In this document: positions 30,396 through 63,824 of the stretch, one piece after another
How the letters are laid out: every line of letters starts with the position of its first letter
How positions within the stretch are numbered: the first letter of the stretch is position 1
Origin: an uncultured bacterium
GTDB lineage: Bacteria; Bacteroidota; Rhodothermia; Balneolales; DATFMH01
Reading direction: 5' to 3'
Assembly (NCBI GenBank): GCA_963712305.1
Contig: CAVQHI010000002.1
Location: 1,212,836-1,276,835 of the forward strand
DNA: 64,000 nucleotides
Notes under the pieces: generated by a model
What the model was told of the DNA's origin: nothing
Databases searched by the model: none
Seen by the model: only the letters and a program-made list of their open reading frames with translations
Program-made: the position numbers and the translations under genes

Positions 30396-30679
30396 CTCAT
30401 GGGGGCTTCAACCCCTTGCCTCATTCAGTTAAATACGGTTACTTAACAGATAACAGACCAAATATTATGAAATCACCACTTCGGACATTATATATTATTT
30501 TATCGATGATCGGTCTGGGTCTAACCGTTATACCATCATTTTTGGTGTTTAACGGGGTGATCTCGTTGCATACCCACAAGCAACTCATGTTTGCGGGAAC
30601 CGTGTTGTGGTTCATTACCGCTCCATTTTGGGTTGGCAAAAAGAATAAAGATCAATCAACAGTTACTGATAATCAATAA
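30392..30679 (+). CDS. Small hypothetical membrane protein (2 TM)
   Basis: Its ATG overlaps the rhaEW stop (ATGA at 30392-30395). The alternative start at 30467 gives MKSPLRTLYIILSMIGLGLTVIPSFLVFNG..LMFAGTVLWFITAPFWVGKK. I recognise no family. Confidence 0.45.
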   Translation: MTHGGFNPLPHSVKYGYLTDNRPNIMKSPLRTLYIILSMIGLGLTVIPSFLVFNGVISLHTHKQLMFAGTVLWFITAPFWVGKKNKDQSTVTDNQ

Positions 30680-30725
30680 TTAGCTATCAGAAATTATAAA
30701 GAAGTCCGGGGTTTTGGTGAAACGC

Positions 30726-30736
30726 ATGAATTAGTT
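30726..30736 (+). promoter_or_regulatory. ATGAATTAGTT element upstream of rhaI
   Basis: The same 11-mer occurs at 57577-57587 (upstream of lutA), and the 10-mer occurs at 58479-58488 (upstream of lutB). This copy lies 50 nt before the rhaI ATG. Confidence 0.3.
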
Positions 30737-30785
30737 GATACTGTTCATCTCTCAAGACCCATGACTCAAGACTATAAGTTAAGCG

Positions 30786-32069: not shown

Positions 32070-32086
32070 TTCGGGAATGTGGCGAT

Positions 32087-32149
32087 AGGGAAATAAGGGA
32101 ATAGGGGTGTAGTTACAAATCCACACCACCGGTCACCCTATTTCCTTAG
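32087..32149 (+). other. Long imperfect hairpin with tandem TAGGGAA-like octamers between rhaI and rhaB
   Basis: The tandem octamers TAGGGAAA TAAGGGAA TAGGGGTG span 32087-32110. The arm TAAGGGAATAGGGGTG (32095-32110) pairs with CACCCTATTTCCTTA (32135-32149), and there is an inner GGTGT/ACACC stem. Confidence 0.5.
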
Positions 32150-32214
32150 TACGTATATCCTTATACCCTGAACCGTTTCACATTAATTTATGATTGCAGC
32201 CTATTAAAATTAGT

Positions 32215-33636
32215 ATGTCAAGTAACACTGTACCCGTAACGGCCATCTTCGATATTGGGAAGACAAACAAGAAATTCCTGCTGTTCGACGAGTCGTATAA
32301 TGTGATTCATCGAAGCCAGGCTGCTATTCCATTAACTGTTGATGACGATGGAGATTCATGTGACGATTTACAAGTGGTAATCGACTGGATGTATGAGACC
32401 TTTGAAAGGATTATTGATGATGAGCGTTTTACGATCAAAGCAGTGAATTTCACTACCTATGGAGCCAGCTTGGTACACCTCGACGATGACGGAAACGTAG
32501 TCACTCCACTCTATGATTATCTGAAGGCTTATCCAGAAGATTTGATAAAAGAATTTTATGCAAAGTATGGAGGGAAAGAAGCTTTTTCATTAGCCACGGC
32601 CTCCCCATCACTTGGAATGTTGAATTCGGGGCTCCAATTATATTGGCTCAAAAATGAAAAACCGGATGCCTTTAAAAAGATTACCCACTCACTTCACCTC
32701 CCACAATTTGCAAGTTATCTGTTTACAAAATATCTCTGTTCGGAATTAACAAGCATTGGCTGCCACACCGCATTGTGGGACTTCAGAGATGGTACATATC
32801 ACAAATGGGTAAGGCAGGAGGGAATTGAGCCATTATTACCGCCTATAGTTTCTGCAACAGAACACAGGTCAATCAACTATAAAGGCAATGATATTGTTTC
32901 CGGTGTCGGGGTACACGACAGTTCCGCCTCGCTGGCACCTTACCTGATGGCACTGGATGAACCGTTTCTGCTCGTTTCAACCGGTACTTGGAGCATCACG
33001 CTGAATCCATTTAACAAAGCACTTTTGAGTAATGAAGAGCTGGACAGGGATTGTCTGAATTTTATGAACGTTTACGGGGAACAAGTGAGAGCATCACGGT
33101 TTCTGCTTGGTAAAGAATATGAGCACCAGAAAGAGAGACTGAAGAAACAATTTGGTGTCTCATCATATGAACAGGATCTCTCCCCCGATGTGTCATTAAT
33201 AGAAAAAGTGATTGAAGGTGTGAACAAAAGCAAGCTGATTCTTGAGACGGTTGGCGGTTCAGGGCCCTATCCACAAGCTTCTGAAGCTACCTGGGATATT
33301 AACGCTTTCGACTCCTATGAAGAAGCATATCATCAACTGATGATAGATCTCGTCAGCATACAGGCAGATTCTATCAAATTAACCATGGACGGTAAAGATA
33401 TCCGCAAGATTATTGTAACGGGAGGATTCAGCAATAATCGCATGTTTATGCAGCTGCTGGCTTCCATGTTTCCCGACAAACACGTGTACACGGCGAACCT
33501 GTCCGATTCAACAGCTTTGGGTGCGGCCCTTCTAATGAAAGACGCGAAAGAGATTAATCCTAACGATTTTCTGGAGCTTAAGAAAACCAATCCACTAGCT
33601 AATACTCGTTTAGCTGATTATGAATGGCATGATTAG
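32215..33636 (+). CDS. rhaB: FGGY-family carbohydrate kinase, rhamnulokinase by context
   Basis: The ORF is tracked from TTG 32194, and the ATG at 32215 gives MSSNTVPVTAIFDIGKTNKKFLLFD (FGGY N-terminal motif). It has GVHDSSASL, the C-terminal VTGGFSNN and ALGAAL, and sits in the rhaEW-rhaI-rhaB context. Confidence 0.8.
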   Translation: MSSNTVPVTAIFDIGKTNKKFLLFDESYNVIHRSQAAIPLTVDDDGDSCDDLQVVIDWMYETFERIIDDERFTIKAVNFTTYGASLVHLDDDGNVVTPLYDYLKAYPEDLIKEFYAKYGGKEAFSLATASPSLGMLNSGLQLYWLKNEKPDAFKKITHSLHLPQFASYLFTKYLCSELTSIGCHTALWDFRDGTYHKWVRQEGIEPLLPPIVSATEHRSINYKGNDIVSGVGVHDSSASLAPYLMALDEPFLLVSTGTWSITLNPFNKALLSNEELDRDCLNFMNVYGEQVRASRFLLGKEYEHQKERLKKQFGVSSYEQDLSPDVSLIEKVIEGVNKSKLILETVGGSGPYPQASEATWDINAFDSYEEAYHQLMIDLVSIQADSIKLTMDGKDIRKIIVTGGFSNNRMFMQLLASMFPDKHVYTANLSDSTALGAALLMKDAKEINPNDFLELKKTNPLANTRLADYEWHD

Positions 33637-33686: not shown

Positions 33687-34655
33687 TTACTTCTTCACAA
33701 GAGTGCTCGCTGTAATGATATCTGTGATAAGCACATCAATATAACCACCACGCAATGCTCCTTTAATCGCTTCAATCTTACTCTTACCGCCTGCGATAGC
33801 AACAACGTTCTTTATGTTTTTAAGTTGGTTCAGATCAATCCCGATTAACCGTTCTTCTAATGTGGTCTTCACAGGTTTACCATTCTTATCGAAAAAGCGC
33901 AGGCTAATGTCTCCAACCGCTTTATTCTCTAATAGTTTGTCTCTCGTCTCAGGATCGACCAATCCGTTTTCAGTTTCAAGAACCGGATTCGTTGAGAGCG
34001 AACCAATACCAATAAAAGCTTTTGTAACTTTCGGGAAAAGATCATAGGCACTTTTCACCTGGTTATCTGACAGGAGAGCTTTCCGGGACTCGGGATTACT
34101 CGCTATCCCGGGTGCCGGTAACAAGGTAAGACTGCCATAAAATAAATGTGCAACGCGCCGCGACAGATCGGCAGCATGCGCCTTTGCTTCAGGAGGTCCG
34201 ACGCCGCCGAGTAGTTGTACAATGTGCAGATCTTCAATCTGCTGAGGTCGAATGGATTCTACCATTTCCTGAAGAGTCGTTCCCCAGGTAACACCTAAGA
34301 CATCACCTTTAGTAATGATCCGTTGCAAGTAGCTTGCAGCTTCAGCACCCATTTGACGCTTCAAAAAAGGACTCTCTTCGGAATATGAATCTGAATCAAT
34401 GTCAACGATTACAACCTCTTTCAGATGATATTTTTCTTCAAGCTTGACTTCAAGGTTTACGTAGTTTTTATCTGAATAATTTACAGTGATTCTAACTACG
34501 CCTCGTTCCCGTGCTTCCTTGAGCAGGCGTGAAACTTTGGGACGAGACAAACTTAATTTATTTGCGATCTCCAGTTGACTGTAATTCTGATGGTAGTAAA
34601 GAGAAGCAACCTTGCTGAGCAGGCGAAAATCAATAGCATTAATCGTTCGAGGCAT
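33687..34655 (-). CDS. SorC/DeoR-family sugar-binding transcriptional regulator
   Basis: The N-terminal HTH reads LLSKVASLYYHQNYSQLEIANKLSLSRPKVSRLLKEARERGVVRITV. A C-terminal SorC-type sugar-phosphate-binding domain follows (LGVTWGTTL, GIGS, DVLITD). It is convergent with rhaB. Confidence 0.88.
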   Translation of the reverse strand: MPRTINAIDFRLLSKVASLYYHQNYSQLEIANKLSLSRPKVSRLLKEARERGVVRITVNYSDKNYVNLEVKLEEKYHLKEVVIVDIDSDSYSEESPFLKRQMGAEAASYLQRIITKGDVLGVTWGTTLQEMVESIRPQQIEDLHIVQLLGGVGPPEAKAHAADLSRRVAHLFYGSLTLLPAPGIASNPESRKALLSDNQVKSAYDLFPKVTKAFIGIGSLSTNPVLETENGLVDPETRDKLLENKAVGDISLRFFDKNGKPVKTTLEERLIGIDLNQLKNIKNVVAIAGGKSKIEAIKGALRGGYIDVLITDIITASTLVKK

Positions 34656-37045: not shown

Positions 37046-38404
37046 TCAATTCACATCTACTTCTACAACTGATGCAATTCCGTCCGGTGCGTTGCCGGGA
37101 AGAGTTACTATGAGATGGCCTTGTTTTTTTTCGGCAGTTACACCGCTTCGTGATGGATCTGAGAGAAGGTGGGCTCCCGAAATATTCCCATCTATAGATG
37201 GCAATTTAAGCGTTCCATCCTTAGGCCATGAAAAGACTTCCAAATACAATTTGCCTGGTTTTGACGTCACACGTCCCCATGAGAATTGTTGTTTGAACGG
37301 ACTTGCCGTGGTGCCGTAAATCGCTTTAGCATTTACATCCAGCCATTTTCCCATCTCTTCCAGGCGTGTAACTTCCGGCTGTGGAATAATGCCTTCAGCC
37401 GTCGGTCCGACATTCAAAAGATAATTTCCGCCTTTTGACGCAATATCGATCAGGTTTCGAATAAGAGTCGTATCCGACTTGAAATCAAAGTCGTCTTTAT
37501 TATATCCCCAATCGTTGTTTATCGTCATACATGTTTCCCAGTCAGTTCCAGGGATACCGTTTGGCGGGATGTTTTGTTCCGGCGTGCCAAAATCACCAAC
37601 GGCATCTTTCATCTGTATCCCTTTCATACCACCGGGGCGTTTTCCAATACGGTTATTTATGATCAGGTTTGGATCCATTTTACGGAGATAATTGTACAAA
37701 TTTTTGCCGTCAGTATAGGTCCACCAATCGGGCCATTCACCATCGAACCAAAGTACTGCCGGATGATACTGAGTAATCAATTCCTTCAGTTGTGTCTTCA
37801 TATATGTTTTGTAGTCATCCTTTTTGCCTGGTCTAATTTTGGTGGGATTATAGGTCGGATGCTCAGGATCAGAATTATCATGCGCCATTTGATCGGGACT
37901 ATGCCAATCCATGATTGAGTAATAAACGCCAAATTTAATGCCTCGTTCTCTGCACGCCTTACTTAGAGCCTTGATAGGATCCTTGCCCCATGGAGTGTCG
38001 TCTACCACGTTATAGTTAGTCGTTTTGGTGTTAAACATGACAAAGCCATCATGGTGCTTAGACGTGATGATCATATATTTCATACCAGCTTTCTTTGCAA
38101 CGCTGACCCACTGATCAGCATTGAATTTCACCGGGTCAAATTGTTTTGCGTATTTTTCGTATTCCTTTCGTGGTACATGACCGTTAGTCATATACCATTC
38201 ACCATGCGCCGGTACGGCATAGATTCCCCAGTGAATAAACATGCCAAAACGGGCATCCTTCCACCAGTCCATCCTGTCATTCTTGTTTGTTGGGTTTGTG
38301 TTATCTGCCCCGGAATTGTTAGGTGAGAAAGACGAGAATGCAGCGAAAAGCGTAATAAATATCAACACGGAAAGGCTTGTGAGATAAAATCTGTGATTTT
38401 GCAT
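37046..38404 (-). CDS. GH29 alpha-L-fucosidase
   Basis: It has WWKDARFGMFIHWGIYAVPA, MIITSKHHDGFVMFNT, YYSIMDW and LWFDGEW, plus a signal peptide. Confidence 0.9.
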   Translation of the reverse strand: MQNHRFYLTSLSVLIFITLFAAFSSFSPNNSGADNTNPTNKNDRMDWWKDARFGMFIHWGIYAVPAHGEWYMTNGHVPRKEYEKYAKQFDPVKFNADQWVSVAKKAGMKYMIITSKHHDGFVMFNTKTTNYNVVDDTPWGKDPIKALSKACRERGIKFGVYYSIMDWHSPDQMAHDNSDPEHPTYNPTKIRPGKKDDYKTYMKTQLKELITQYHPAVLWFDGEWPDWWTYTDGKNLYNYLRKMDPNLIINNRIGKRPGGMKGIQMKDAVGDFGTPEQNIPPNGIPGTDWETCMTINNDWGYNKDDFDFKSDTTLIRNLIDIASKGGNYLLNVGPTAEGIIPQPEVTRLEEMGKWLDVNAKAIYGTTASPFKQQFSWGRVTSKPGKLYLEVFSWPKDGTLKLPSIDGNISGAHLLSDPSRSGVTAEKKQGHLIVTLPGNAPDGIASVVEVDVN

Positions 38405-53060: not shown

Positions 53061-54320
53061 ATGGACCGCAAAGACTTTATCAAAAAAGCCGGCCTCTTTG
53101 GGGTTGGAAGCACAGTATCATTAGGCTCTATAACAAGAAAAGGCAGCTTTGGAATTCTGTCTGAAAAGGATTCGCAGTCGGACAGGGAGTACTGGATCAG
53201 CGTCATGCGAAAAATATCAGATCCCGTTCTTAATGCATTGTCACAAAGAAAACTGAGAAAGCTGATGCCGGTTGAAACGGTGCCGGGTTCCCATGACGAC
53301 CGAAGGGTGTTTACTCACCTTGAGGCTTTTGGCAGACTTATGACCGGTATCGCTCCATGGCTTGAATTAGGCGTTGACGATTCTGAAGAAGGAAAAATCA
53401 GGACAAAATATATTGATCTCGCGCGGAAGTCTCTGGAAGCCTCTGTTGATCCGAAATCACCGGATTTTCTCAATTTTGATAAAGGCCGCCAGCCGCTGGT
53501 GGATGCCGCATTCCTTGCCCATGCGTTAATTAAAGCACCAAAAGTGCTTTGGGAGAAGTCATCAGATACGACACGCGATAATCTTGTCAAAGCGTTAAAA
53601 TCGAGCCGGACGATTGTTCCCTATCACAGCAACTGGATCCTGTTCAGCGCTATGGTAGAAGCAGCTTTGATGAAGTTTGATGCAGGAGGTGATAAAGTCC
53701 GCATGGATCTGGCGGTTAAACAAATGGATGCCTGGTATCTTGGCGATGGCGTTTATGGCGATGGACCTATGTTCCATTGGGATTATTACAACAGCTATGT
53801 GATTCAGCCCTTCATGCTTGATATTTTGGATGTCATGCGTAATCATGATCATTCATATAATGGGTTATACCAGAAAAACAGGAAAATCAGCCAGCGATAT
53901 GCCGAGCAATTGCTCGGAGTAATCGCTCCGGATGGCACTTACCCGCCGATTGGCAGATCTATTACCTATCGGTTCGGAGCTTTCCAATTACTGGCCCAGG
54001 TGGCGTGGGAACAATTTCTTCCCGAAAGAATGTCTCCCGCTCAGGTTCGGTCTGCTTTGACGGCTGTCATCAAAAAAATTATGGAAGCACCGGACAATTT
54101 TGATAAAAACGGATGGCTCCAACTTGGCGTTTACGGTCACCAGCCCCACCTGGCCGAGACCTACATTTCAACAGGAAGTTTGTATTTATGTTCAGCTGCT
54201 TTTCTGCCACTTGGTTTAAAACCCGATGATGTGTTTTGGGCCGGGAAAGAATCCGACTGGAGAACGAAGGAAATATGGAAAGGAAAGGATATCCCTGCAG
54301 ATCATCACCTGAATGTGTAG
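53061..54320 (+). CDS. DUF2264-like protein (uncharacterised PUL-associated; possibly a glycoside hydrolase)
   Basis: The leader MDRKDFIKKAGLFGVGS is Tat-like. REYWISVMRKISDPVL, DGTYPPIGRSITYRFGAF and YISTGSLYLC resemble what I recall of DUF2264 (PF10022) proteins. This is not verified. Confidence 0.5.
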   Translation: MDRKDFIKKAGLFGVGSTVSLGSITRKGSFGILSEKDSQSDREYWISVMRKISDPVLNALSQRKLRKLMPVETVPGSHDDRRVFTHLEAFGRLMTGIAPWLELGVDDSEEGKIRTKYIDLARKSLEASVDPKSPDFLNFDKGRQPLVDAAFLAHALIKAPKVLWEKSSDTTRDNLVKALKSSRTIVPYHSNWILFSAMVEAALMKFDAGGDKVRMDLAVKQMDAWYLGDGVYGDGPMFHWDYYNSYVIQPFMLDILDVMRNHDHSYNGLYQKNRKISQRYAEQLLGVIAPDGTYPPIGRSITYRFGAFQLLAQVAWEQFLPERMSPAQVRSALTAVIKKIMEAPDNFDKNGWLQLGVYGHQPHLAETYISTGSLYLCSAAFLPLGLKPDDVFWAGKESDWRTKEIWKGKDIPADHHLNV

Positions 54321-54494
54321 ATCGGTTGAGAGCCGATTCCTATTAAATGATTGAGCACTCCGGTTTCAATTATATCTCGATATCGCTTTGTCTATGTTAG
54401 CGTTAAAAAGTAAATTCGGGTTAGTTCTCGCAGAGTAACGCGGATGACACGCTGAGTTTCTCAGATATTAGAGATTAATGAATCCATTTACAGA

Positions 54495-55820
54495 ATGCCT
54501 GATATCCTGAAAGATGATTTTGTTATTACAGATGTCCATGTAAAGGATATCCGCTTTCCAACATCCAGGAACCTGGATGGATCGGATGCCATGAACCCGG
54601 AGCCGGACTATTCGGCGACTTATGTCATTCTTCAGACGAATAGGGATGATCATTTGGAAGGGCATGGCCTGGCTTTCACCGTTGGCAGGGGGAATGAAAT
54701 CTGTGTGAAAGCGGTCGAGGCCCTGATACCGTTTGTGAAGGGCCGGTCGATGAAATCCATCCTGTTGGATATGGCAGGGTTTTGGCATACGCTTACAGGC
54801 GATAGCCAGATACGGTGGCTGGGACCGGAGAAAGGAGCGGTTCACATGGCCGCTGCGGCCGTCATCAATGCTGTCTGGGACTTGTATGCTAAAATCTTGG
54901 GTAAGCCACTTTGGAAGGTACTGGTGGATATGACGCCGGAGGAATTGATCTCTTGTATCGATTTCAGTTATATCAGGGATGCCCTCGATGAAGATGAAGC
55001 CCTCGAAATCCTGAAGAAGAACACCGCTTCGAAAGCTGCAAGGGAAAAAAATATCCGCGAGAAAGGATACCCGGCCTATACTACTTCCATCGGCTGGCTA
55101 GGATATTCTGATGATAAGGTCCGCCGTTTATGCAGGGAAGCACTAGCTGAGGGCTGGACCAGTTTCAAGATGAAAGTGGGCAGTAATGTAGACGACGATA
55201 TCCGGCGTGCGAAAATCATCAGGGAAGAAATTGGCTATGATCATAAACTGATGATGGATGCCAACCAGAAATGGGGAATTGAAGAGGCGATCTCTTACAT
55301 GAAGCAGCTTGCCGAATTCAAACCTCACTGGATTGAAGAACCCACCAGTCCAGACGAAATACTTGGACATGCCGCGATAAGAAAGGCCCTGTCACCTATC
55401 GGAGTGGCTACGGGCGAGCATGTGCACAACCGTATCATGTTCAAGCAGTTGTTTCAGGCCAATGCCATAGATTTTTGTCAGATCGATAGCTGCCGTCTTG
55501 CCGGTGTTAATGAAGTTGTAGCCGTTCTGCTGATGGCAGCGAAATTTGGCATTCCGGTGTGTCCGCATGCCGGTGGTGTGGGACTCTGCGAGTATGTGCA
55601 GCATCTCTCCATATTTGACTACATTGCAGTAAGTGGTTCACTTGAGAACCGCATGATCGAATATGTGGATCATCTGCATGAACATTTTTTTGATCCGGTA
55701 GATATTGAACAAGGTCATTATATGGCTCCTGATAAACCCGGATACAGTATCACCATGAAAACTGAAACATTGAAAGCCTACGAATTTCCAGTAGGTAAAA
55801 TCTGGAAGGAAGAAAAATAA
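54495..55820 (+). CDS. fucD: L-fuconate dehydratase (enolase superfamily)
   Basis: There is a near-continuous match to my memory of Xanthomonas FucD: DVRFPTSR.LDGSDAMNP.PDYSA.YV, LRWLGPEKG, GYPAYTTS.GWLGYSD, FK.KVG, DANQ.W, WIEEPTSPD..LGHA, STGEH and HAGGVGLCE.VQHL. Confidence 0.92.
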   Translation: MPDILKDDFVITDVHVKDIRFPTSRNLDGSDAMNPEPDYSATYVILQTNRDDHLEGHGLAFTVGRGNEICVKAVEALIPFVKGRSMKSILLDMAGFWHTLTGDSQIRWLGPEKGAVHMAAAAVINAVWDLYAKILGKPLWKVLVDMTPEELISCIDFSYIRDALDEDEALEILKKNTASKAAREKNIREKGYPAYTTSIGWLGYSDDKVRRLCREALAEGWTSFKMKVGSNVDDDIRRAKIIREEIGYDHKLMMDANQKWGIEEAISYMKQLAEFKPHWIEEPTSPDEILGHAAIRKALSPIGVATGEHVHNRIMFKQLFQANAIDFCQIDSCRLAGVNEVVAVLLMAAKFGIPVCPHAGGVGLCEYVQHLSIFDYIAVSGSLENRMIEYVDHLHEHFFDPVDIEQGHYMAPDKPGYSITMKTETLKAYEFPVGKIWKEEK

Positions 55821-56662
55821 TGAAGCTTGCCACTCTGAAGGACGGCCGGTTGGTTGCTGTTTCAGATAATCAATTTGTAGCACTCGAAAAAGTTGGTTTT
55901 GAAGGAACCATGCTTGACCTCATTCGCGCCGGCAACGGGAAATTAGAGAGTATGGCAGATTTCCTCAGATACGTCACGGAAATGGAATCACTGGAAATTG
56001 AGGAACTGGATGCTCCACTGCAAAATCCTTCTAAAATTGTGGCGATCGGACTGAACTATGTCGATCATGCCTCAGAGTCAAAGATGGAACTACCGAAGTC
56101 GCCCCTGGTCTTTACCAAGTTTCCAAGCTCAATAACATCACCATTCGGACCGATTCTGATACCGATGAATCTTACCAATGAAGTTGATTATGAGGCTGAA
56201 TTGGGTGTTGTTGTTGGCAAAGGAGCTAAGAATATATCTCTGAAGGATGCTCTATCCTATGTATTTGGATATACCGTACTGAATGATGTGTCGGCACGTG
56301 ATCTGCAGTTTGGTGATCAGCAGTGGGTGCGGGGTAAATCTCTTGACACGTTTTGTCCAATGGGTCCGTACGTGGTTACTGCTGATGAAATTCCGGATCC
56401 TCAGAATCTTGAAATAGGATGCAGCGTCAATGGAGAAACGCTTCAAGATGCTAACACACGTGATATGATCTTCAAAGTTGCAGATCTCATATCTCAGTTA
56501 TCTCACTCCTTCACACTCGAGCCGGGTGATATAATAGCCACAGGTACACCGAGCGGCGTTGGATTCAGCAGGAAACCGCCAGTGTTACTCAAACCGGGTG
56601 ATATTGTTAAAACCTGGGTTAAAGGAATCGGTGAATTAGTTAATCCTGTTAAGAAAGCGTAA
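55820..56662 (+). CDS. Fumarylacetoacetate hydrolase-family protein; 2,4-diketo-3-deoxy-L-fuconate hydrolase by context
   Basis: FAH motifs are present: NYVDHA, PLVFTKF, DYEAELGVVVGK, GYTVLNDVSARDLQ, KSLDTFCPMGP and GDIIATGTPSGVG. Its start overlaps the fucD stop (TAATG). Confidence 0.8.
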   Translation: MKLATLKDGRLVAVSDNQFVALEKVGFEGTMLDLIRAGNGKLESMADFLRYVTEMESLEIEELDAPLQNPSKIVAIGLNYVDHASESKMELPKSPLVFTKFPSSITSPFGPILIPMNLTNEVDYEAELGVVVGKGAKNISLKDALSYVFGYTVLNDVSARDLQFGDQQWVRGKSLDTFCPMGPYVVTADEIPDPQNLEIGCSVNGETLQDANTRDMIFKVADLISQLSHSFTLEPGDIIATGTPSGVGFSRKPPVLLKPGDIVKTWVKGIGELVNPVKKA

Positions 56663-56667
56663 ATGAT

Positions 56668-57423
56668 ATGGACAGATTAAAAGGAAAACGTACGATTGTA
56701 ACAGGTGCGGCATCGGGCATCGGCAAAGCGATCGCCAAACGGTTTATTGAAGAAGGAGCGAAAGTTCTGGTTCTTGATGTTAATCCGGACACAGCCGCGC
56801 AGACGGCAAAAGAACTTGGTAGTAACGCTACTGCTATGTCGGTCGATGTCACGAATGCAAGCCAGGTAGAAGCTGCTGTCAAGAAGGCAAATGAAGAATG
56901 GGGAGGTATCGACGTCATTGTTAATAATGCGGGTGTGGGCGTTGCAGCAAAAACCGCCGAAACATCTGAGAACGACTGGCAACGAGTGATCGATGTGTGT
57001 ATGAAAGGGACCTTCCTTGGAATGAAGTACGTCATTCCCGTTATGCAAAAGCAGAAAAGCGGTTCTATAATCAACATGTCGTCTGTTGCGGCGCTTGTAG
57101 GTGTCGGTGACCGCGCAGCTTACTGTGCAGCGAAGGGCGGAGTCATGGCCTTAACAAGAGCGGCAGCTGTCGATCATGCCGGCGATGGTATTCGCGTGAA
57201 CTGTATTGCACCAGGTACAGTCGATACACCCTGGGTTCAGCGAATTACACAGGGGTATGATGATCCGGAAGCGGCGCGCACGGCAATGAAGGCGCGTCAG
57301 CCCCACGGACGCCTTGTCAAACCCGAGGAAGTAGCTGCCATGGCCGTATACCTGGCATCCGATGAAGCCGGCTCAACAAACGGTGCCGTAATGGTGGTAG
57401 ATGGTGGCTGGACCGCGAGGTAA
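56668..57423 (+). CDS. SDR oxidoreductase; 2-keto-3-deoxy-L-fuconate 4-dehydrogenase by context
   Basis: It has TGAASGIGKA, NNAG, the S..YCAAKGG catalytic motif, and PGTVDTP. Confidence 0.7.
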   Translation: MDRLKGKRTIVTGAASGIGKAIAKRFIEEGAKVLVLDVNPDTAAQTAKELGSNATAMSVDVTNASQVEAAVKKANEEWGGIDVIVNNAGVGVAAKTAETSENDWQRVIDVCMKGTFLGMKYVIPVMQKQKSGSIINMSSVAALVGVGDRAAYCAAKGGVMALTRAAAVDHAGDGIRVNCIAPGTVDTPWVQRITQGYDDPEAARTAMKARQPHGRLVKPEEVAAMAVYLASDEAGSTNGAVMVVDGGWTAR

Positions 57424-57576
57424 GATTTGGGAAGCGGTCAGTCGGTTGCTACATAGGAGCCCCCCGGACAAACCGTCAGGCCGCCATCTGAATGTTAGAT
57501 TTCACTTTTTGGTCTCTCTTTTAGATGGAATAGGTTCCCATTATTCCATGAATTCTGGGTTAAACAGCAAGTTCTA

Positions 57577-57599
57577 ATGAATTAGTTCTAAAGCAGATT
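57577..57599 (+). promoter_or_regulatory. 23-nt element ATGAATTAGTTCTAAAGCAGATT immediately upstream of lutA
   Basis: About 20/23 positions repeat at 58479-58500 upstream of lutB (ATGAATTAGT-CTAATGAAGATT). Its first 11 nt also occur upstream of rhaI. Confidence 0.35.
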
Positions 57600-57604
57600 T
57601 AATA

Positions 57605-58336
57605 ATGCGCATATCCCTTTTTATCACGTGTTTCAACGACACCATGTTTCCGGAGACGGGCAAGGCCACAGTTAAACTACTGGAGCGACTTGGTCATGAA
57701 GTAGATTTCCCGCTTGAGCAGACCTGCTGCGGACAAATGCACTTCAATACGGGTTATCAACAGGAAACAATCCCGCTTGTACGCCACTTTGTAGATGTCT
57801 TTGCAGACGCCGAAGTGGTTGTCGCTCCATCGGCTTCCTGTGTTGGAATGGTTCGTGAGTTTTACCCGCGTGTCGCAGAATTATCCAATGATGAGGAATT
57901 GCAGATAGCAGTGTCCAAATTGATTCCAAAAGTGTATGAATTATCGGAATTCCTGATTAACAAACTTGGAATCGAAGATGTCGGCGCCTACTATCCACAC
58001 AGGGTTACCTACCATCCGACGTGTCATTCTCTTCGCGTGCTTCATGTTGGGGATGCCCCGCTACGTTTGCTTAAACATGTGAAAGGCATCGATCTCATAG
58101 AATTGCCTGCAGCAGAAGAGTGCTGTGGATTTGGTGGCACGTTTGCTGTGAAGAATGCCGAGACGTCCATGGCAATGCTCGGTGATAAAATTTGCCATGT
58201 TAGAGAAACGGAAGCTGAGAAATGCACAGCATGTGATAATTCGTGCCTAATGCACATTGGTGGTGGACTAAGCCGACAGCGAGCGGGTGTTGAACCTGTA
58301 CATCTGGCTGAAATACTGGCCTCGACTGAGGAGTGA
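57605..58336 (+). CDS. lutA: Lactate utilisation protein A (CCG-domain Fe-S oxidoreductase)
   Basis: It has two cysteine-rich CCG motifs (EQTCCGQ, ECCGFGG), starts with MRISLFITCFND as LutA/YkgE proteins do, and is followed by lutB and lutC. Confidence 0.88.
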   Translation: MRISLFITCFNDTMFPETGKATVKLLERLGHEVDFPLEQTCCGQMHFNTGYQQETIPLVRHFVDVFADAEVVVAPSASCVGMVREFYPRVAELSNDEELQIAVSKLIPKVYELSEFLINKLGIEDVGAYYPHRVTYHPTCHSLRVLHVGDAPLRLLKHVKGIDLIELPAAEECCGFGGTFAVKNAETSMAMLGDKICHVRETEAEKCTACDNSCLMHIGGGLSRQRAGVEPVHLAEILASTEE

Positions 58337-58382
58337 TGACGACTAATAGTTTGTTTTTGCAAAACTGGAGTTCTTGTCATGC

Positions 58383-58423
58383 GGGGGCCAATCCCCCTAA
58401 CCCCCTTCGCCAGGGGGGAATTT
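58383..58423 (+). repeat. Twin G5/C5 hairpin element in the lutA-lutB spacer
   Basis: The sequence is GGGGGccaatCCCCCtaaCCCCCttcgccaGGGGGGaattt. The segment CCCCTAA-CCCCCTT..GGGG.ATTT parallels the 52801-52824 hairpin (CCCCTAAATCCCCTTAAGGGGATTT). Confidence 0.55.
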
Positions 58424-58501
58424 CGGCATTGAGACAAGTTTTGATCGGTTTTTTCCTTAGAAAATTTTAAATCATTTCATGAATTAGTCTAATGAAGATT
58501 G

Positions 58502-58516
58502 TTCCATCGGTAACAT
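58502..58516 (-). promoter_or_regulatory. LacI-type operator candidate (minus-strand ATGTTACCGATGGAA)
   Basis: The plus strand reads TTCCATCGGTAACAT. This is the fifth intergenic ATGTTACCG copy, about 90 nt upstream of lutB. Confidence 0.4.
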
Positions 58517-58604
58517 CTTGGATCTTTTACTCCCCATTAGAAAAGGGGGCTGGGGAGATTGAAAAGCGTAATCATAGTATCTCAGCGGTGAAAAAGGAGA
58601 TTAA

Positions 58605-60035
58605 ATGAGCACTCAGAACAACGGAAACATTACTTTTGAAGAATCGGCTCAGTCGTACCTGTCGAATACACAGCTCCGGCGGAATATCGGTCATGCTACA
58701 CACACTATCCGTATGAAGCGGGCTACGGTTGTCGGTGAAATGACCGATTGGGAAGAGTTGCGTGAAGCCGGCAGGTCGATTAAAAGCCATACTCTCAGAC
58801 ATCTGGATCATTACCTCCTGAAACTGGAAGAGTCGGTGATAGGTGCAGGTGGTCAGGTGCATTGGGCTCGCAACGGTGCAGAGGCAAATCAAATTGTAAC
58901 ATCGCTGGTGAAAGAGCATAACGTTTCAGAAGTGGTGAAAATGAAATCCATAACCACTGATGAGATTGGTCTTAATGATGCGCTTGAAAAAGAAGGTATC
59001 AAACCCATCGAAACTGATCTGGCAGAGCTCATTGTTCAGTTAGCCGAAGATACACCGTCACATATCCTGGTCCCTGCCATTCATAAAAACCGGGCGGAAA
59101 TCAGAGAGTTATTTCGTCGCACGATCGGTAGTAAAGATCTAACCGATCAGCCGGCCGAGCTTGCTGAAACGGCACGAAAGTATCTGCGTCAAAAATTTCT
59201 GAGTGCGAAAGTTGGAATCAGCGGAGCTAATTTTGCAGTAGCTGAAACGGGAACAGTGTCGGTTGTTGAATCAGAGGGCAACGGACGCATGTGTACGACG
59301 CTTCCGGAAGTGCTGATAAGTATTATGGGGATTGAAAAAATCATCCCTTCATGGCGTGATTTTGAAGTTTTTATGCAATTGCTTCCAAGATCATCGACCG
59401 CTGAACGAATGAATCCGTATAACTCATTTTGGACAGGCGTTACGAAAGGTGACGGACCCCAGGAGTTTCATCTTGTTTTGATGGATAATGGAAGAACAAA
59501 TGTGCTTGCCGATGAAATTGGGCGACAAACATTACAATGTATTCGCTGCAGCGCTTGCCTGAATGTTTGTCCGGTATATGAACGAACGGGTGGACATGCC
59601 TATCATTCAGTTTATCCGGGACCCATTGGTGCTATACTGACACCGCAGCTGAAGGGTCTTGATAAAAAAGGTCCGGCATCATTGCCTTATGCATCGAGCT
59701 TATGTGGAGCCTGTTATGAGGTTTGCCCGGTTAAGATCAATATCCCGGAAGTCCTGGTCCATCTCAGGGGGAAGATCGTTGATAGAAAAGAAAAAGAGGG
59801 AACAATAGGAGAAAAGCTGGATCCGGAACATGTTGCACTCAAGTATCTTTCGAGAGCTTTCACAAACCGTAAGAAATATGAACGTGTACAAAGGCTTGCG
59901 CAGAAAGGCCAGATGCTTTTTGTTAAAAATGGAACAATCTCACATTTGCCTGGCAAGTTGTCAGGTTGGTCGGCCATGCGTGATTTGAAACCCATCCCCA
60001 AAGAATCATTTCGTGACTGGTGGAGGAACCGATGA
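58605..60035 (+). CDS. lutB: Lactate utilisation protein B (LUD domain + 2x[4Fe-4S])
   Basis: It has the ferredoxin motifs CIRCSACLNVCPVY and CGACYEVCPVKI and a LUD/DUF162 region (ISGANFAVAETGTV..ESEGNGR). Confidence 0.9.
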   Translation: MSTQNNGNITFEESAQSYLSNTQLRRNIGHATHTIRMKRATVVGEMTDWEELREAGRSIKSHTLRHLDHYLLKLEESVIGAGGQVHWARNGAEANQIVTSLVKEHNVSEVVKMKSITTDEIGLNDALEKEGIKPIETDLAELIVQLAEDTPSHILVPAIHKNRAEIRELFRRTIGSKDLTDQPAELAETARKYLRQKFLSAKVGISGANFAVAETGTVSVVESEGNGRMCTTLPEVLISIMGIEKIIPSWRDFEVFMQLLPRSSTAERMNPYNSFWTGVTKGDGPQEFHLVLMDNGRTNVLADEIGRQTLQCIRCSACLNVCPVYERTGGHAYHSVYPGPIGAILTPQLKGLDKKGPASLPYASSLCGACYEVCPVKINIPEVLVHLRGKIVDRKEKEGTIGEKLDPEHVALKYLSRAFTNRKKYERVQRLAQKGQMLFVKNGTISHLPGKLSGWSAMRDLKPIPKESFRDWWRNR

Positions 60036-60697
60036 TGAATGCTGCAAAAGAAGAAATACTCACCAGGATTCGATTGGCACTAAAGGATGTGCCGCAGGAT
60101 GAAAATCCGGACGAATTACCCGAATTGCGTAGTTATCGAACGACTAGTAATGCGCCGCAGGAGAATCTCTGGTTGTTTGCTGAACGGGTTGGTGATTACA
60201 AGGCGGAAGTCACAAAAGTCAGTGCTGACCAATTGCCTGCTATCATTAAGGATCATCTGAGACTGCATGACATTAAGAGACTGGTTGTGCCCGACGGTAT
60301 TTCAGATGAGTGGTTGCCTGAAGATGTCGATTTGCTTAGGGACAATAAAGACAATCCACTGACACATTCCCAATTGGATAACAGCGATGGGGTTTTAACG
60401 GGTTGTGCCATAGCCGTCGCTCAGACCGGTTCGATTGTGTTAGACAGCGGAAAAGGTCAGGGACGCAGGGTCTTAACATTGCTTCCCGATTATCACTTGT
60501 GTGTAGTTTTTGAAGAACAAATTGTAGGCATCGTGCCGGAAGCCTTTGAGAAATTAAATGACGAGATGACAACAGATGGCCCCCCGGTAACATTTATTTC
60601 CGGTCCATCGGCAACCTCCGATATCGAGCTGAATCGGGTTGAGGGTGTTCATGGTCCGCGACAGCTGGATGTGATTATTGTTGGTAAAAGTACTTAG
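60032..60697 (+). CDS. lutC: Lactate utilisation protein C (LUD domain)
   Basis: The ATG at 60032 overlaps the lutB stop (ATGA); the ORF is tracked from GTG 60020. It has ILTRIR.., GVLTGCAIAVAQTGSIVL and HLCVV....IV, which are typical of LutC/YkgG. Confidence 0.85.
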   Translation: MMNAAKEEILTRIRLALKDVPQDENPDELPELRSYRTTSNAPQENLWLFAERVGDYKAEVTKVSADQLPAIIKDHLRLHDIKRLVVPDGISDEWLPEDVDLLRDNKDNPLTHSQLDNSDGVLTGCAIAVAQTGSIVLDSGKGQGRRVLTLLPDYHLCVVFEEQIVGIVPEAFEKLNDEMTTDGPPVTFISGPSATSDIELNRVEGVHGPRQLDVIIVGKST

Positions 60698-60751
60698 GGG
60701 TGCCTAAAGTACTTAAAGTTGATTAGTAAACATGGGTAACAGAGACGAAAT

Positions 60752-61588
60752 ATGCCGAAGGTAGATGCCCATCAACATTTCTGGAAATATAGTCCGGATA
60801 ATTATGGATGGATAAACAATGATATGTCCATTCTCAAAGAAGACTATCTTCCGGATAAATTGCAGGTTCATTTAGAGAAAAATGGTTTCGACGGTTGTGT
60901 TGCTGTTCAGGCTCGCCAGAATGAAGAAGAGAATGATTTTCTATTGGGACTTGCTGATGAATTTCCATTTATTAAAGGCGTTGTCGGCTGGGTAGATTTG
61001 CAGGCTGATAATGTCGAAGAGCGATTAGAGGCATTGTCCCAAAATCCGAAGATATGTGGACTAAGACACCTTGTTCAGGATGAACGGGATGACAGGTTTT
61101 TGTTGAGGAAGAAATTCGTGCGAGGAGTTAAAAGCCTGAAGAAGTTCAATCTTTGTTACGATATCCTGATTTTCCCAAAGCACCTCTCGGTTGCTAAAGA
61201 GTTAGTAAAGCAGTGTCCCGATCAAAAATTTGTAGTTGATCACATAGCCAAACCTATTGTTAAAGATGGGATAATTGAACCTTGGGCAAGAGGAATCAGA
61301 AGGATTGCGCTGCATCCGAATATATGCTGCAAGATATCCGGTATGGTTACCGAAGCGAGATGGCATCAATGGAAGAAAGAGGATTTCAGGCCTTACTTAG
61401 ATGTGATTTTTGATGCATTCGGTACAGAGAGGATAATGATAGGATCAGACTGGCCGGTCTGCAAGTTGTCGGCCGAATATGACGATGTGATTGGAATAGT
61501 GACGGAATACATATCGCAATTGTCTTTCGACGAACAGGAGAATATTATGGGAGGCAATGCCGTACGGTTTTACAATCTTAAGGTTTGA
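60752..61588 (+). CDS. Amidohydrolase-2 family protein; L-fucono-1,5-lactonase by context
   Basis: It has the N-terminal metal motif VDAHQHFW, VDHIAKP and MIGSDWPV. The ~280-aa length is typical of sugar-lactonase members of the amidohydrolase superfamily. Confidence 0.75.
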   Translation: MPKVDAHQHFWKYSPDNYGWINNDMSILKEDYLPDKLQVHLEKNGFDGCVAVQARQNEEENDFLLGLADEFPFIKGVVGWVDLQADNVEERLEALSQNPKICGLRHLVQDERDDRFLLRKKFVRGVKSLKKFNLCYDILIFPKHLSVAKELVKQCPDQKFVVDHIAKPIVKDGIIEPWARGIRRIALHPNICCKISGMVTEARWHQWKKEDFRPYLDVIFDAFGTERIMIGSDWPVCKLSAEYDDVIGIVTEYISQLSFDEQENIMGGNAVRFYNLKV

Positions 61589-61610
61589 ATTTATAAAGGC
61601 TGATTTGAAT

Positions 61611-61632
61611 GGATAAATCCCCGTGTTTATCC
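61611..61632 (+). terminator. Hairpin GGATAAA-tccccgtg-TTTATCC after the lactonase gene
   Basis: It has a 7-bp stem and lies 23 nt after the stop at 61588. It is weak and lacks a strong U-tract. Confidence 0.3.
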
Positions 61633-61696
61633 TACCGCGTATTTAGTAAGTTTCTGAACACCGTAAGCATCCAACAAAATTAAGAGGAAAATCACA

Positions 61697-62482
61697 ATGG
61701 ATCTTCATCTTAAAGACAAGATCATAATCGTAACCGGCGGTGCAGGGTTGCCTGGAAGTATTGGGGAAACAATCGTACGAAGCATTGCCGGTGAAGGTGG
61801 TATCCCTGTGATTATCGATAAAGACCAGCGTGGTGAATCATTTGCGGCATCACTTAAGGATGAGGACAAGGATTGCCTTTTTGTTCAGGCGGATCTTACC
61901 GAGGCCTACGATTGCAAGAGAAGTGTTGAAAAAACAATTTCGACTTACGGCAGGATTGATGGCTTGGTAAATAATCTCGGAGTGAATGATGGGATCGGAC
62001 TGAATCGCAGCTGCGAGGATTTTATCGATTCACTCAAGCTCAACCTGGTCCATTTTTTTGCCATGACCAAATATAGTGCAGACGCACTGGAAAAATCGAA
62101 AGGGTCTATTGTGAATATAGCATCTAAGGTCGCTGTGACCGGTCAGGGTGGGACCTCAGGATATGCTGCAGCAAAGGGTGGGGTGTTGGCGCTGACCCGT
62201 GAATGGGCCGTTGATCTTCATGAAGCTGGCATCAGGGTGAATGCGATGGTCATCAGCGAGTCATGGACACCGGGATACAGGGAGTGGATTCAGAAATTTG
62301 ACGAGCCGGAAGGAAAGCTTATCTCAATAACAAAGAAGATTCCGCTTGAACACCGAATGACAAAACCGGAAGAAATTGCGGATGCCGTTTTGTTTTTACT
62401 CTCCGATCGCTCTTCACATACAACCGGGCAACATGTTTACGTGGATGGCGGGTATGTCCATTTGGATCGGGCCATTTCCTGA
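61697..62482 (+). CDS. SDR oxidoreductase; L-fucose 1-dehydrogenase by context
   Basis: It has VTGGAGLPGSIG (a Rossmann motif with an insertion), NNLG, S..YAAAKGG, and adjacency to the lactonase gene. Confidence 0.6.
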   Translation: MDLHLKDKIIIVTGGAGLPGSIGETIVRSIAGEGGIPVIIDKDQRGESFAASLKDEDKDCLFVQADLTEAYDCKRSVEKTISTYGRIDGLVNNLGVNDGIGLNRSCEDFIDSLKLNLVHFFAMTKYSADALEKSKGSIVNIASKVAVTGQGGTSGYAAAKGGVLALTREWAVDLHEAGIRVNAMVISESWTPGYREWIQKFDEPEGKLISITKKIPLEHRMTKPEEIADAVLFLLSDRSSHTTGQHVYVDGGYVHLDRAIS

Positions 62483-62486
62483 TATC

Positions 62487-63824
62487 TTATTTTATTTCGA
62501 GCATCATCCACTTGCCGGTAAAAGCGCCTTGAAGCATATCTTCAGCCAGTAAATCCCACCCGACAAATCCCATAAATTTACCGCCTGATTGTTCGGCTGT
62601 TGGCGCCAGGGGAGCACCTGTTTCGGCATTGTAATCTTCATGCAAGGAACCATTTGCCTGAGCATCCTTTAAAACAAGTGTTCCGATCATGTAAGACAGT
62701 TCCCTTGCCTGTGATTTAAAACCATACCTCACGAGCATAATGGAATAAAGATAGTTTGCATTAATCCAAATAGGACCACGCCAATTCGAGTAGGGAACAA
62801 TAATATTCCGATTATTATAATCCGGATCCTGTTTAGAAAGACTCCTGAGGCCGAATCCTGATAACATATAGTCTGTGTTCCAAAGATATTTTTTAATCAT
62901 TGCACGTCCTTCACCAAGAGGGAGCAACCCTTGGAATAGCGGAATAAAATTCTGGAAACTGACCCGTTTAATAGGTTCGCCCCCATCCCTTCGAATATTC
63001 CAGAAAGAATGATCCTGGGGAAACCACAGATAATGCAACATGGCCTTTTTGAGATTTTGCGCTTTTTTACTGAAATAGGTCGCATCTTTAATATGTCCCA
63101 AATGTCGGGCAATTAAAGACATGCTCAGGTACTCTCTGAGTTGCCAGGTATTCATATCAGCTGCGATGATAGCTCCGCGGTCGTTGGGGGCATTTGTTAG
63201 CACAACACTGTTATCCGCACCCGATTCGCCGGCATTATCCCAATAGAAGAGTCCATAGTGTGGGTCCAACTGTGTTTTTTCCCTATATGCAAGAACTTCC
63301 TTTAACTTCAGATATATACTTTCAATCCACTGAAAAGTACCAAGCCGGCGCGATGCTATAAGTGCACCCTGAGATAGAAAAGGCTTCATTGCAAATTTGC
63401 CAAAGACAGGTCTTGGTCCCTTGGGTGTAATGCAACCAGAGACGTATCCGCTGTCATCAATGGCCTTGGCAAAATTCAATACCCACCATTTCAGGTATTT
63501 AGCCCTTTGAGGGTTTTCAGCAGCAAGATGACAACCGATGAAAAAACCGTCCCAATCCCACATTTGAGTATAGTATCCGGCAGGAATCAGATAATCGTGT
63601 GGGATGTAACCATTTGCTTTTTTGATAGACTGTGGTTCGAGTTTCTGAAATTGCTGATGAACTTGTTTATAGAGGTGTTGTATTTGTTCCTGTGTGATGC
63701 TGGAAGCTTGTTCGAGAGGAGTCCGGGATTTCTCATTTTGTGCTGCTGATCCATCCGGCCAAATAAATAGAATTCCTGACAGGATGAGCAGGGGTAAAAG
63801 ATGGTTAGTATTTTGTGTTTTCAT
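62487..63824 (-). CDS. (alpha/alpha)6-barrel glycoside hydrolase, GH63/GH37 (trehalase/MGH1)-like
   Basis: It has MWDWDGFF, YWDNAGESGADNS, GFGLRSLS, NWRGPIWINANYL and HEDYNAETG, which resemble the GH63/GH37 fold family. A signal peptide is present. Its stop is only 4 nt from the convergent SDR stop. Confidence 0.5.
   Translation of the reverse strand: MKTQNTNHLLPLLILSGILFIWPDGSAAQNEKSRTPLEQASSITQEQIQHLYKQVHQQFQKLEPQSIKKANGYIPHDYLIPAGYYTQMWDWDGFFIGCHLAAENPQRAKYLKWWVLNFAKAIDDSGYVSGCITPKGPRPVFGKFAMKPFLSQGALIASRRLGTFQWIESIYLKLKEVLAYREKTQLDPHYGLFYWDNAGESGADNSVVLTNAPNDRGAIIAADMNTWQLREYLSMSLIARHLGHIKDATYFSKKAQNLKKAMLHYLWFPQDHSFWNIRRDGGEPIKRVSFQNFIPLFQGLLPLGEGRAMIKKYLWNTDYMLSGFGLRSLSKQDPDYNNRNIIVPYSNWRGPIWINANYLYSIMLVRYGFKSQARELSYMIGTLVLKDAQANGSLHEDYNAETGAPLAPTAEQSGGKFMGFVGWDLLAEDMLQGAFTGKWMMLEIK

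Follow-up and report, generated by a model that had tools for sequence, protein, structure and literature searches.

The non-phosphorylative ("route III") catabolism of L-fucose involves, in order of reaction, an L-fucose dehydrogenase, a cog3618 lactonase, the L-fuconate dehydratase FucD, a short-chain dehydrogenase/reductase (SDR) acting as L-2-keto-3-deoxyfuconate (L-KDF) 4-dehydrogenase, and a hydrolase of the FAH family. It is said to be encoded by XCC4067-4070 in Xanthomonas campestris, as studied by Yew et al. in 2006, and reportedly involves BmulJ_04915 and BmulJ_04919 in Burkholderia multivorans, the subject of work by Hobbs et al. in 2013. L-lactate is oxidized by a system of three subunits, named LutABC, LldEFG or YkgEFG, in Bacillus subtilis, Shewanella oneidensis and Campylobacter jejuni. 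Route III has also been described in Herbaspirillum huttiense, and the products of its FAH step are pyruvate and L-lactate (PMC6336799, PMC11199699). A connection between lactate oxidation and deoxyhexose catabolism has been reported for rhamnose, lldEFG genes having been found in RhaEW rhamnose regulons (Rodionova et al. 2013, PMC3870299).

Here we analyze a 64-kb stretch of bacterial DNA (hereafter the window), in which LutA, an SDR and a neighbouring membrane protein have their closest named relatives in Balneolaceae or Balneolales. We consider it likely, from homology and gene context, that its region 54495-62482 encodes a route III L-fucose pathway extended by an L-lactate oxidase, within a locus for the utilisation of a rhamnose-, fucose- and uronate-containing polysaccharide. 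The five enzyme families of route III are all recognized there, but the gene order is fucD-FAH-SDR...lactonase-SDR instead of the fucD-SDR-FAH-lactonase-SDR usual in Bacteroidota, and the predicted KDF dehydrogenase is type-2-like rather than of type 1 or type 4. Also unlike described route III clusters, this one comprises no ABC or FucP transporter, mutarotase or regulator, and it has an embedded lutABC and a SusC/D polysaccharide-utilisation setting. The lut genes encode the same three subunits, with the same domains, as in the known systems, and lutB and lutC are likewise translationally coupled, but they do not form a stand-alone lactate operon, they come without a lactate permease or a LutR/LldR regulator, and lutA is separated from lutB by 268 bp containing a mobile-element remnant. 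As in the RhaEW-lldEFG operons, an L-lactate oxidase that would turn lactate into pyruvate is attached to a deoxyhexose operon, except that lutABC is here separate from the rha operon and lies within the fucose cluster, some 24 kb downstream.

Results

An eight-gene cluster conserved in three genomes

Family assignments were based on the list of open reading frames (ORFs), on Pfam and NCBIfam profile searches, and on sequence comparisons with the Protein Data Bank (PDB). Gene roles were deduced from homology and synteny, the window being the sequence base, and gene content, gene order, homology, catalytic residues, conservation and insertion site are direct observations. Eight intact ORFs on the + strand span exactly 54495-62482, and the profile searches agree with the ORF list on the order given by the initial annotation.

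The first gene, fucD (54495-55820, 441 aa, Pfam MR_MLE_N and MR_MLE_C), would encode the L-fuconate dehydratase converting L-fuconate into 2-keto-3-deoxy-L-fuconate. Its stop overlaps the start (TAATG) of the FAH-family gene (55820-56662, 280 aa, Pfam FAA_hydrolase 6.8e-78), whose product is the proposed L-2,4-diketo-3-deoxyfuconate hydrolase, yielding pyruvate and L-lactate. After a gap of 5 bp follows the 5' SDR gene (56668-57423, 251 aa), for a proposed type-2-like L-KDF 4-dehydrogenase. Next comes lutA (lldE, 57605-58336, 243 aa), for the CCG-domain subunit of the lactate oxidase (two Pfam CCG domains, 8.4e-33), which is isolated between a 181-bp spacer on its 5' side (57424-57604) and a 268-bp spacer on its 3' side (58337-58604). 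The system is completed by lutB (lldF, 58605-60035, 476 aa), for the subunit with LUD and 4Fe-4S domains (TIGR00273, 481.8 bits for a cutoff of 444.8; Pfam LUD_dom, Fer4_8 and LutB_C), and by lutC (lldG, 60032-60697, Pfam LUD_dom 6.7e-25), for the LUD-domain subunit. The longest lutC ORF begins with a GTG at 60020 (60020-60697, 225 aa), and the ATG at 60032 is the start called in ENA contig_50172 (L081), a sequence identical to the window that we also used for the gene beyond the window end. With this ATG, the lutB stop and the lutC start overlap by 4 nt (ATGA). An exact-sequence look-up with FucD gave no record, but starting from LutA, the window sequence was retrieved both from a 2.03-Mb contig and from L081. 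The gene of an Amidohydrolase_2 (Amidohydro_2) protein, the proposed L-fucono-1,5-lactonase (60752-61588, 278 aa), is preceded by 54 bp, and the last gene, for the 3' SDR and predicted L-fucose 1-dehydrogenase (61697-62482, 261 aa), by 108 bp.

The same order, with all eight ORFs intact, is found in two other loci, L084 and L085, which together with the window make up what we call the window clade. Their LutA proteins are respectively 95% and 93% identical to that of the window, and protein identities to the window range from 69 to 95% over the eight genes. With such divergence and no ORF lost, the arrangement must be stable and under selection, and the gene order is not due to chance.

Predicted identity of the five fucose-pathway enzymes

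All five non-lut products have homologues among characterised enzymes, and would make up the oxidative L-fucose set proposed initially. Over its full length, FucD matches human ENOSF1 (4a35, 2e-180) and X. campestris FucD (2hxt/1yey, 1.7e-170). Its residues K227, D255, E281, E308, D331 and H358 align, with a constant offset of 7, to X. campestris K220, D248, E274, E301, D324 and H351, which we take to be the catalytic residues as numbered by Yew et al. in 2006. With its lysine motif K225-x-K227, the protein has the KxK base, the three Mg ligands and the His-Asp dyad that define the FucD subgroup of the enolase superfamily. On the L-rhamnonate dehydratase model NF011968, it scores 73.6 bits, for a cutoff of 393.

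The 3' SDR passes the NCBIfam equivalog model for L-fucose dehydrogenase (NF052481, 380.5 bits for a cutoff of 300) and matches the characterised BmulJ_04919 (PDB 4gkb/4glo, 5e-82). The sole PDB match of the lactonase is the L-fucono-1,5-lactonase BmulJ_04915 (4dlf/4dnm, 5.2e-57), and synteny between the lactonase and fucose dehydrogenase genes is kept in many FucD loci.

Four types of L-KDF 4-dehydrogenases have been distinguished, and structure 4DQX, with Arg170 and Arg231 as substrate ligands, was placed beside type 2 (PMC11199699). 4DQX is the best PDB match of the 5' SDR (2.9e-63), before BDH2 (2AG5, 3.1e-49) and the H. huttiense KDF dehydrogenase (KDFDH; 8XWK, 4.1e-45). In the HMMER alignment, R149 and R210 of the 5' SDR fall on the two arginine ligands, and two matches resembling 3-hydroxybutyrate dehydrogenases carry other residues at both positions. 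The third position of the pattern, a Tyr in type 2, appears as Trp189 in this alignment, which is not a reproduction of that of PMC11199699. The 5' SDR thus appears to be a type-2-like member of the L-KDF dehydrogenase/BDH2 branch. Given the NF052481 score on one side, and the 4DQX match with its arginine ligands on the other, both SDR roles are now assigned by homology, and no longer by adjacency, which was initially their only basis.

The FAH protein matches 8gsr, an L-2,4-diketo-3-deoxyrhamnonate hydrolase (6.4e-58), and slightly better HpcE. L-2,4-diketo-3-deoxyrhamnonate and the diketo acid of the fucose pathway are the same compound (PMC11199699). The FAH gene is tightly paired with the SDR gene in the window, L084, L085 and the two further loci L193 and L194, and it is mainly on this constant pairing that the proposed assignment depends.

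This shared diketo compound (PMC11199699) raises the question, already present in the initial annotation, of whether the SDR, FAH and lactonase genes might instead form the oxidative diketo-hydrolase pathway of L-rhamnose (LRA1, 2, 5, 6). The best named NCBIfam match of the FAH protein is indeed a hydrolase of the L-rhamnonate pathway, and the surrounding locus is rich in rhamnosidases. Two defining features fail, and make this explanation weak: the dehydratase is of the FucD type and not of the LRA3/RhmD type, well below the cutoff of the rhamnonate dehydratase model, and the 5' SDR groups with 4DQX and BDH2 in the KDFDH branch, while 6D9Y, the structure closest to L-2-keto-3-deoxyrhamnonate (L-KDR) dehydrogenase (PMC11199699), is not among its top 60 PDB matches. 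In addition, the 3' SDR passes the L-fucose dehydrogenase model, and a complete phosphorylative rhamnose route is already encoded in the window. We therefore regard an oxidative rhamnose pathway as very improbable here.

History of the lutABC insert

With FucD as query, 80 loci were obtained from 185,579 species genomes, the closest one being only 70% identical. Among them, the usual Bacteroidota order is fucD-SDR-FAH-lactonase-fucose dehydrogenase. Contexts outside the window clade were sampled around six LutA and two SDR homologues (L193 and L194). L193, from another Balneolaceae genome of the same sample (SDR 82% identical), has the order FAH-SDR-lactonase-fucose dehydrogenase without lut genes, and the gap between SDR and lactonase is 11 bp, at the very place where lutABC sits in the window. 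No lut genes are present in L194 either (SDR 69% identical). We conclude from these two loci that lutABC entered the cluster of the window clade by insertion, with the KDF dehydrogenase gene on one side and the lactonase gene on the other, which makes it, on this comparison, a secondary insertion in the clade ancestor and not an original member of the cluster. The term "cassette" of the initial annotation overstates the unity of the eight genes, lutABC being a later addition bounded by long spacers.

Where might lutABC come from? The six LutA relatives outside the clade are 76-81% identical to the window LutA, and 73-85% identical among themselves. In five of the six loci (L086, L087, L088, L089 and L090) they adjoin RhaEW genes, and the window LutA is 77-81% identical to these rha-linked copies, from other Balneolaceae and from Chloroflexota. 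The order RhaEW-RhaI-RhaB-lutABC is found in L086 (Fodinibius sediminis), L087 (Rhodohalobacter sp. 614A) and L089, the order rhaM-rhaA-RhaEW-lutABC in L088 (Herpetosiphonaceae), and lutABC is followed by an ABC transporter, then by RhaEW, in L090; only L091 has no link to sugar genes. RhaEW and RhaI are respectively 62-75% and 66-74% identical between the same genomes, LutA identities being as high or higher. Being also within the range observed among its relatives, the LutA values fit with orthology, i.e. vertical descent of one lutABC that changed position. The window rha operon has no lutABC, and next to its rhaB comes, on the - strand, the gene of a SorC/DeoR-type regulator (33687-34655), so that this operon appears to have lost, or never had, its lutABC. 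Taken together, these comparisons suggest that lutABC probably moved from a rhamnose operon into the fucose cluster.

Beside these loci, we observed that LutA is 78-83% identical between Balneolaceae and Chloroflexota (L088, L090; Herpetosiphonaceae, and matches in Roseiflexaceae), and that Roseiflexaceae are also among the best matches of FucD (L003 and L019, 68-69%). This suggests that modules for deoxyhexose catabolism have been exchanged between the phylum of Balneolaceae and Chloroflexota.

In three of the 80 FucD loci, L007 (Saprospiraceae), L008 (Cyclobacteriaceae) and L047 (Ignavibacteriaceae), the fucose cluster is followed by lut genes of another LutA lineage. As in the window, oxidative fucose genes and lutAB(C) are adjacent and on one strand in all three, but lut stands at the 3' end instead of being embedded, and their LutA proteins, 63-66% identical to each other, are only 38-43% identical to that of the window. 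By this divergence, the fucose pathway has there recruited a lactate oxidase independently, which provides the strongest evidence, although indirect, for a functional association between fuc and lut genes.

Spacers and repeat element around lutA

Alignment of the region upstream of fucD in the window, L084 and L085 revealed a single strongly conserved stretch, at 54377-54428, about 70-115 bp upstream of the gene. This non-coding block is our best candidate for the promoter or operator of the fucose unit. A second conserved block (57468-57527), in the SDR-lutA spacer, was found by alignment of the same three genomes, and is possibly an internal promoter or an mRNA element.

The lutA-lutB spacer contains an ORF-less repeat element of 190 bp (58380-58570), with imperfect inverted repeats of 31 nt at 58389-58419 and 58531-58561, whose ends are G/C hairpins (CCCCNTTAGAAAAGGGGGCNGGGG). 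In all three genomes of the window clade, lutA and lutB are split, with the element in between. L085 contains, at this site, an ORF for a 160-aa DUF559 endonuclease-like protein, flanked by copies of the G/C hairpin motif, and it has a near-identical copy of the repeat element upstream of lutA as well (L085 coordinates of copies and ORF: 9730-9898, 10883-11365 and 11319-11487). The N-terminus of the DUF559 ORF (SPLEKGAGG) is encoded by the repeat motif. The 24-nt motif is present in 101 stretches from very diverse metagenomes; among the 80 of these that were fetched, only 4 have a DUF559 homologue within 1.5 kb of it. It is often found beside a second hairpin, ACAACCCCCTGAATCCCCCTTTATTAAGGGGGA. 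The element looks like a widespread family akin to miniature inverted-repeat transposable elements (MITEs), linked to DUF559 genes, and what the window retains is a remnant of a mobile element associated with DUF559. The presence of this remnant in the spacer explains why lutA is so oddly split from lutB.

Several other features were searched in vain. The possibility that the element flanks the whole lutABC insert was rejected, as no copy is present in the 54-bp lutC-lactonase spacer, nor upstream of lutA in the window. No Rfam match was found in the whole window at the gathering threshold, nor in 54300-62600 at E <= 1, and folding of the lutA-lutB spacer (z = 0.07) gave no sign of a structured RNA. 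Scans for sigma-70 promoters and intrinsic terminators were at or below the shuffle expectation, and are uninformative on operon breaks. The 10-mer ATGAATTAGT occurs exactly three times in the window (30726-30735, 57577-57586 and 58479-58488), in intergenic regions upstream of the + strand genes rhaI, lutA and lutB, where about 0.1 exact match of a fixed 10-mer is expected per 64 kb. It was rejected as a shared operator, not being conserved at the orthologous positions of L084 and L085.

These spacers bear on the question of whether lutABC might be a mere passenger, landed by rearrangement at a mobile-element hotspot, and serving on its own in general or exogenous L-lactate utilisation, without any specific tie to fucose catabolism. 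The 181- and 268-bp spacers around lutA speak for it, as does the DUF559-associated repeat element between lutA and lutB, with its near-identical extra copies around lutA in L085; L193 and L194 have the same fuc genes without lut nearby, and the LutA relative of L091 is not linked to sugar genes. On the other hand, three genomes whose proteins have diverged to 69-95% identity still carry the arrangement with every ORF intact, and a second, unrelated LutA lineage adjoins fucose clusters independently in three other lineages. The end product of the cluster is moreover the substrate of LutABC, and the lut genes are not accompanied by a lactate permease. A passenger lutABC is thus quite unlikely in our opinion, and we retain a lactate oxidase that extends the fucose pathway.

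Rhamnose route, polysaccharide-utilisation locus and transport

The phosphorylative rhamnose route, which ends in L-lactate, is encoded at 28218-33636 (+), by RhaEW (NF006189, 1054 bits for a cutoff of 634), a small membrane ORF, RhaI (TIGR02629, 1.5e-157) and the FGGY kinase RhaB, in accordance with the RhaEW route reported at 28-34 kb by the initial annotation. It lies within an unusually large polysaccharide-utilisation locus (913-54320) with SusC/SusD, two GH106, GH78, GH29, GH92, GH28, GH31 and two GH3. The GH106 and GH78 members are rhamnosidases. This locus further encodes a heparinase II/III-like protein, a DUF2264 (BcGHD) protein, a CE15-like glucuronyl esterase, two carboxylesterases, a fusion of esterase and metallo-beta-lactamase, UxaC, an ECF sigma factor, and LacI- and SorC/DeoR-type regulators. 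From this content, its target would be a glycan rich in rhamnose, fucose and uronate. The GH29 alpha-L-fucosidase (37046-38404, -, Pfam Alpha_L_fucos 3.6e-100) is the likely source of free L-fucose.

The substrate of the fucose cluster deserves consideration in this context. FucD is reportedly promiscuous, according to Yew et al. in 2006. Even with all enzymes as assigned, the physiological substrate might then be L-galactose, D-arabinose or a methylated fucose from the target polysaccharide: characterised L-fucose and KDF dehydrogenases also take derivatives of D-arabinose or L-galactose (PMC6336799, PMC11199699), and the locus holds many glycosidases without a known target. But only a 6-deoxy substrate gives L-lactate, D-arabinose giving glycolate (PMC6336799), and for this reason the recruitment of an L-lactate oxidase points to fucose, as do the GH29 fucosidase of the locus and the 3' SDR passing the L-fucose dehydrogenase equivalog. 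We find it rather improbable that another sugar is the physiological substrate, and take L-fucose as the substrate in what follows.

Neither a recognisable fucose permease nor a mutarotase-sized ORF or other mutarotase candidate was found in the 64-kb window, intergenic ORFs included. The absence of both had been noted in the initial annotation; for the transporter, it has to be nuanced, as it may partly be an edge effect, a symporter gene being situated just outside the window. This gene, for a sodium:solute symporter of 553 aa (L081 16601-18262, i.e. window ~64205-65866, -; TIGR00813, 220 bits for a cutoff of 184), is found with a 74-aa ORF without family (L081 16250-16474, window ~63854-64078, -). 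After a GH63-like gene, the two converge on the fucose cluster, and the pair is conserved in L084 and L085. To propose the symporter as the fucose transporter is a guess.

Two neighbours of the rhamnose genes were also observed. At 26732-28156 (+), a protein of 474 aa with 11-12 predicted membrane helices, and no Pfam or NCBIfam match, is conserved at 75-83% identity in L086, L087 and L089, where its gene stands immediately before RhaEW; in some sources, homologues bear the name "purine-cytosine permease family protein". We propose it as a candidate for L-rhamnose transport, from an NCS1-like subfamily that is uncharacterised. The ORF at 30392-30679 (+), with a likely start at an ATG near 30467, encodes a small membrane protein of two helices (57-70 aa, without Pfam match). 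Five Balneolaceae loci (L086, L087, L089, L193 and the window) have this protein between their RhaEW and RhaI, conserved at 47-71% identity, and it may serve the neighbouring transporter as an accessory subunit.

Discussion

From the homologies above, we infer every enzymatic step of the following flow, as well as co-expression and a shared role of LutABC. The GH29 fucosidase would release L-fucose which, once taken up (a role for the symporter beyond the window being the guess just mentioned), would be oxidized into L-fucono-1,5-lactone by the SDR at 61697. The lactonase at 60752 would then form L-fuconate, FucD at 54495 would dehydrate it into L-KDF, the SDR at 56668 would oxidize L-KDF into 2,4-diketo-3-deoxy-L-fuconate, and the FAH protein at 55820 would cleave this compound into pyruvate and L-lactate. 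LutABC (57605-60697) would finally convert L-lactate into a second pyruvate, passing electrons to some acceptor. The RhaEW route would yield dihydroxyacetone phosphate (DHAP) and L-lactate, and the same LutABC would oxidize that lactate. As the rha operon has no lutABC, and the LutA lineage is otherwise rha-linked, a single lutABC is the likely lactate sink of both deoxyhexose routes. The service of both routes by LutABC, put forward in the initial annotation, gains support from this usual linkage, and from the independent joining of lut genes to fucose clusters elsewhere.

Several observations weigh against a fucose pathway extended by lutABC. The lactonase scores 299 bits on the L-fucono-1,5-lactonase model NF052480, under its cutoff of 400, and the FAH protein 231 bits on the 2,4-didehydro-3-deoxy-L-rhamnonate hydrolase model NF053535, under its cutoff of 500. 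Pathways of the FucD type, being promiscuous, take L-galactose and D-arabinose as well. A transporter, a mutarotase and a regulator are all missing inside the eight-gene cluster. With the two spacers around lutA, the second one containing the mobile-element remnant, fuc and lut may not be co-transcribed, and the cluster may not be one transcript. The two deoxyhexose routes can do without an adjacent lutABC, as in L193, which has both of them and no lutABC within a distance of 10 kb. Finally, other lactate dehydrogenases or a second lutABC may exist elsewhere, the evidence covering 64 kb of the genome. With all this in mind, we still hold the extended fucose pathway to be likely, with a higher confidence for the identity of the fucose pathway itself, and a lower one for the shared-hub role and the relocation history.

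A more speculative scenario, which we find doubtful in its entirety, is that lutABC moved from the end of the rha operon to the middle of the fucose operon, gained flanking control regions, and is now a separately regulated hub for two deoxyhexose routes. The repeat element between lutA and lutB may have aided the move.

The fucose pathway (Yew 2006; Hobbs 2013; PMC6336799; PMC11199699), LutABC, and the link between rhamnose and lldEFG (PMC3870299) were already published. We found no description, in the open-access literature, of lutABC/lldEFG inside or beside oxidative fucose clusters, the loci L007, L008 and L047 included. What is new is the gene content and order, and the traceable insertion of known parts; there is no new chemistry nor a new kind of system, and the arrangement is sensible rather than surprising.

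Generic SDR, FAH and amidohydrolase genes in the polysaccharide-utilisation loci of Balneolaceae nevertheless receive identities by this analysis. For this organism, the carbon balance of fucose would be closed, one fucose giving two pyruvate. The two independent lut recruitments bring genomic evidence for L-lactate as the in vivo end product of the pathway in Bacteroidota-like bacteria. The locus also offers a dated, comparative example of how a catabolic module passes from one operon to another when both have an intermediate in common and, if lutABC does act as a hub, it would let one trace, in a natural case, how operons are re-wired around such an intermediate.

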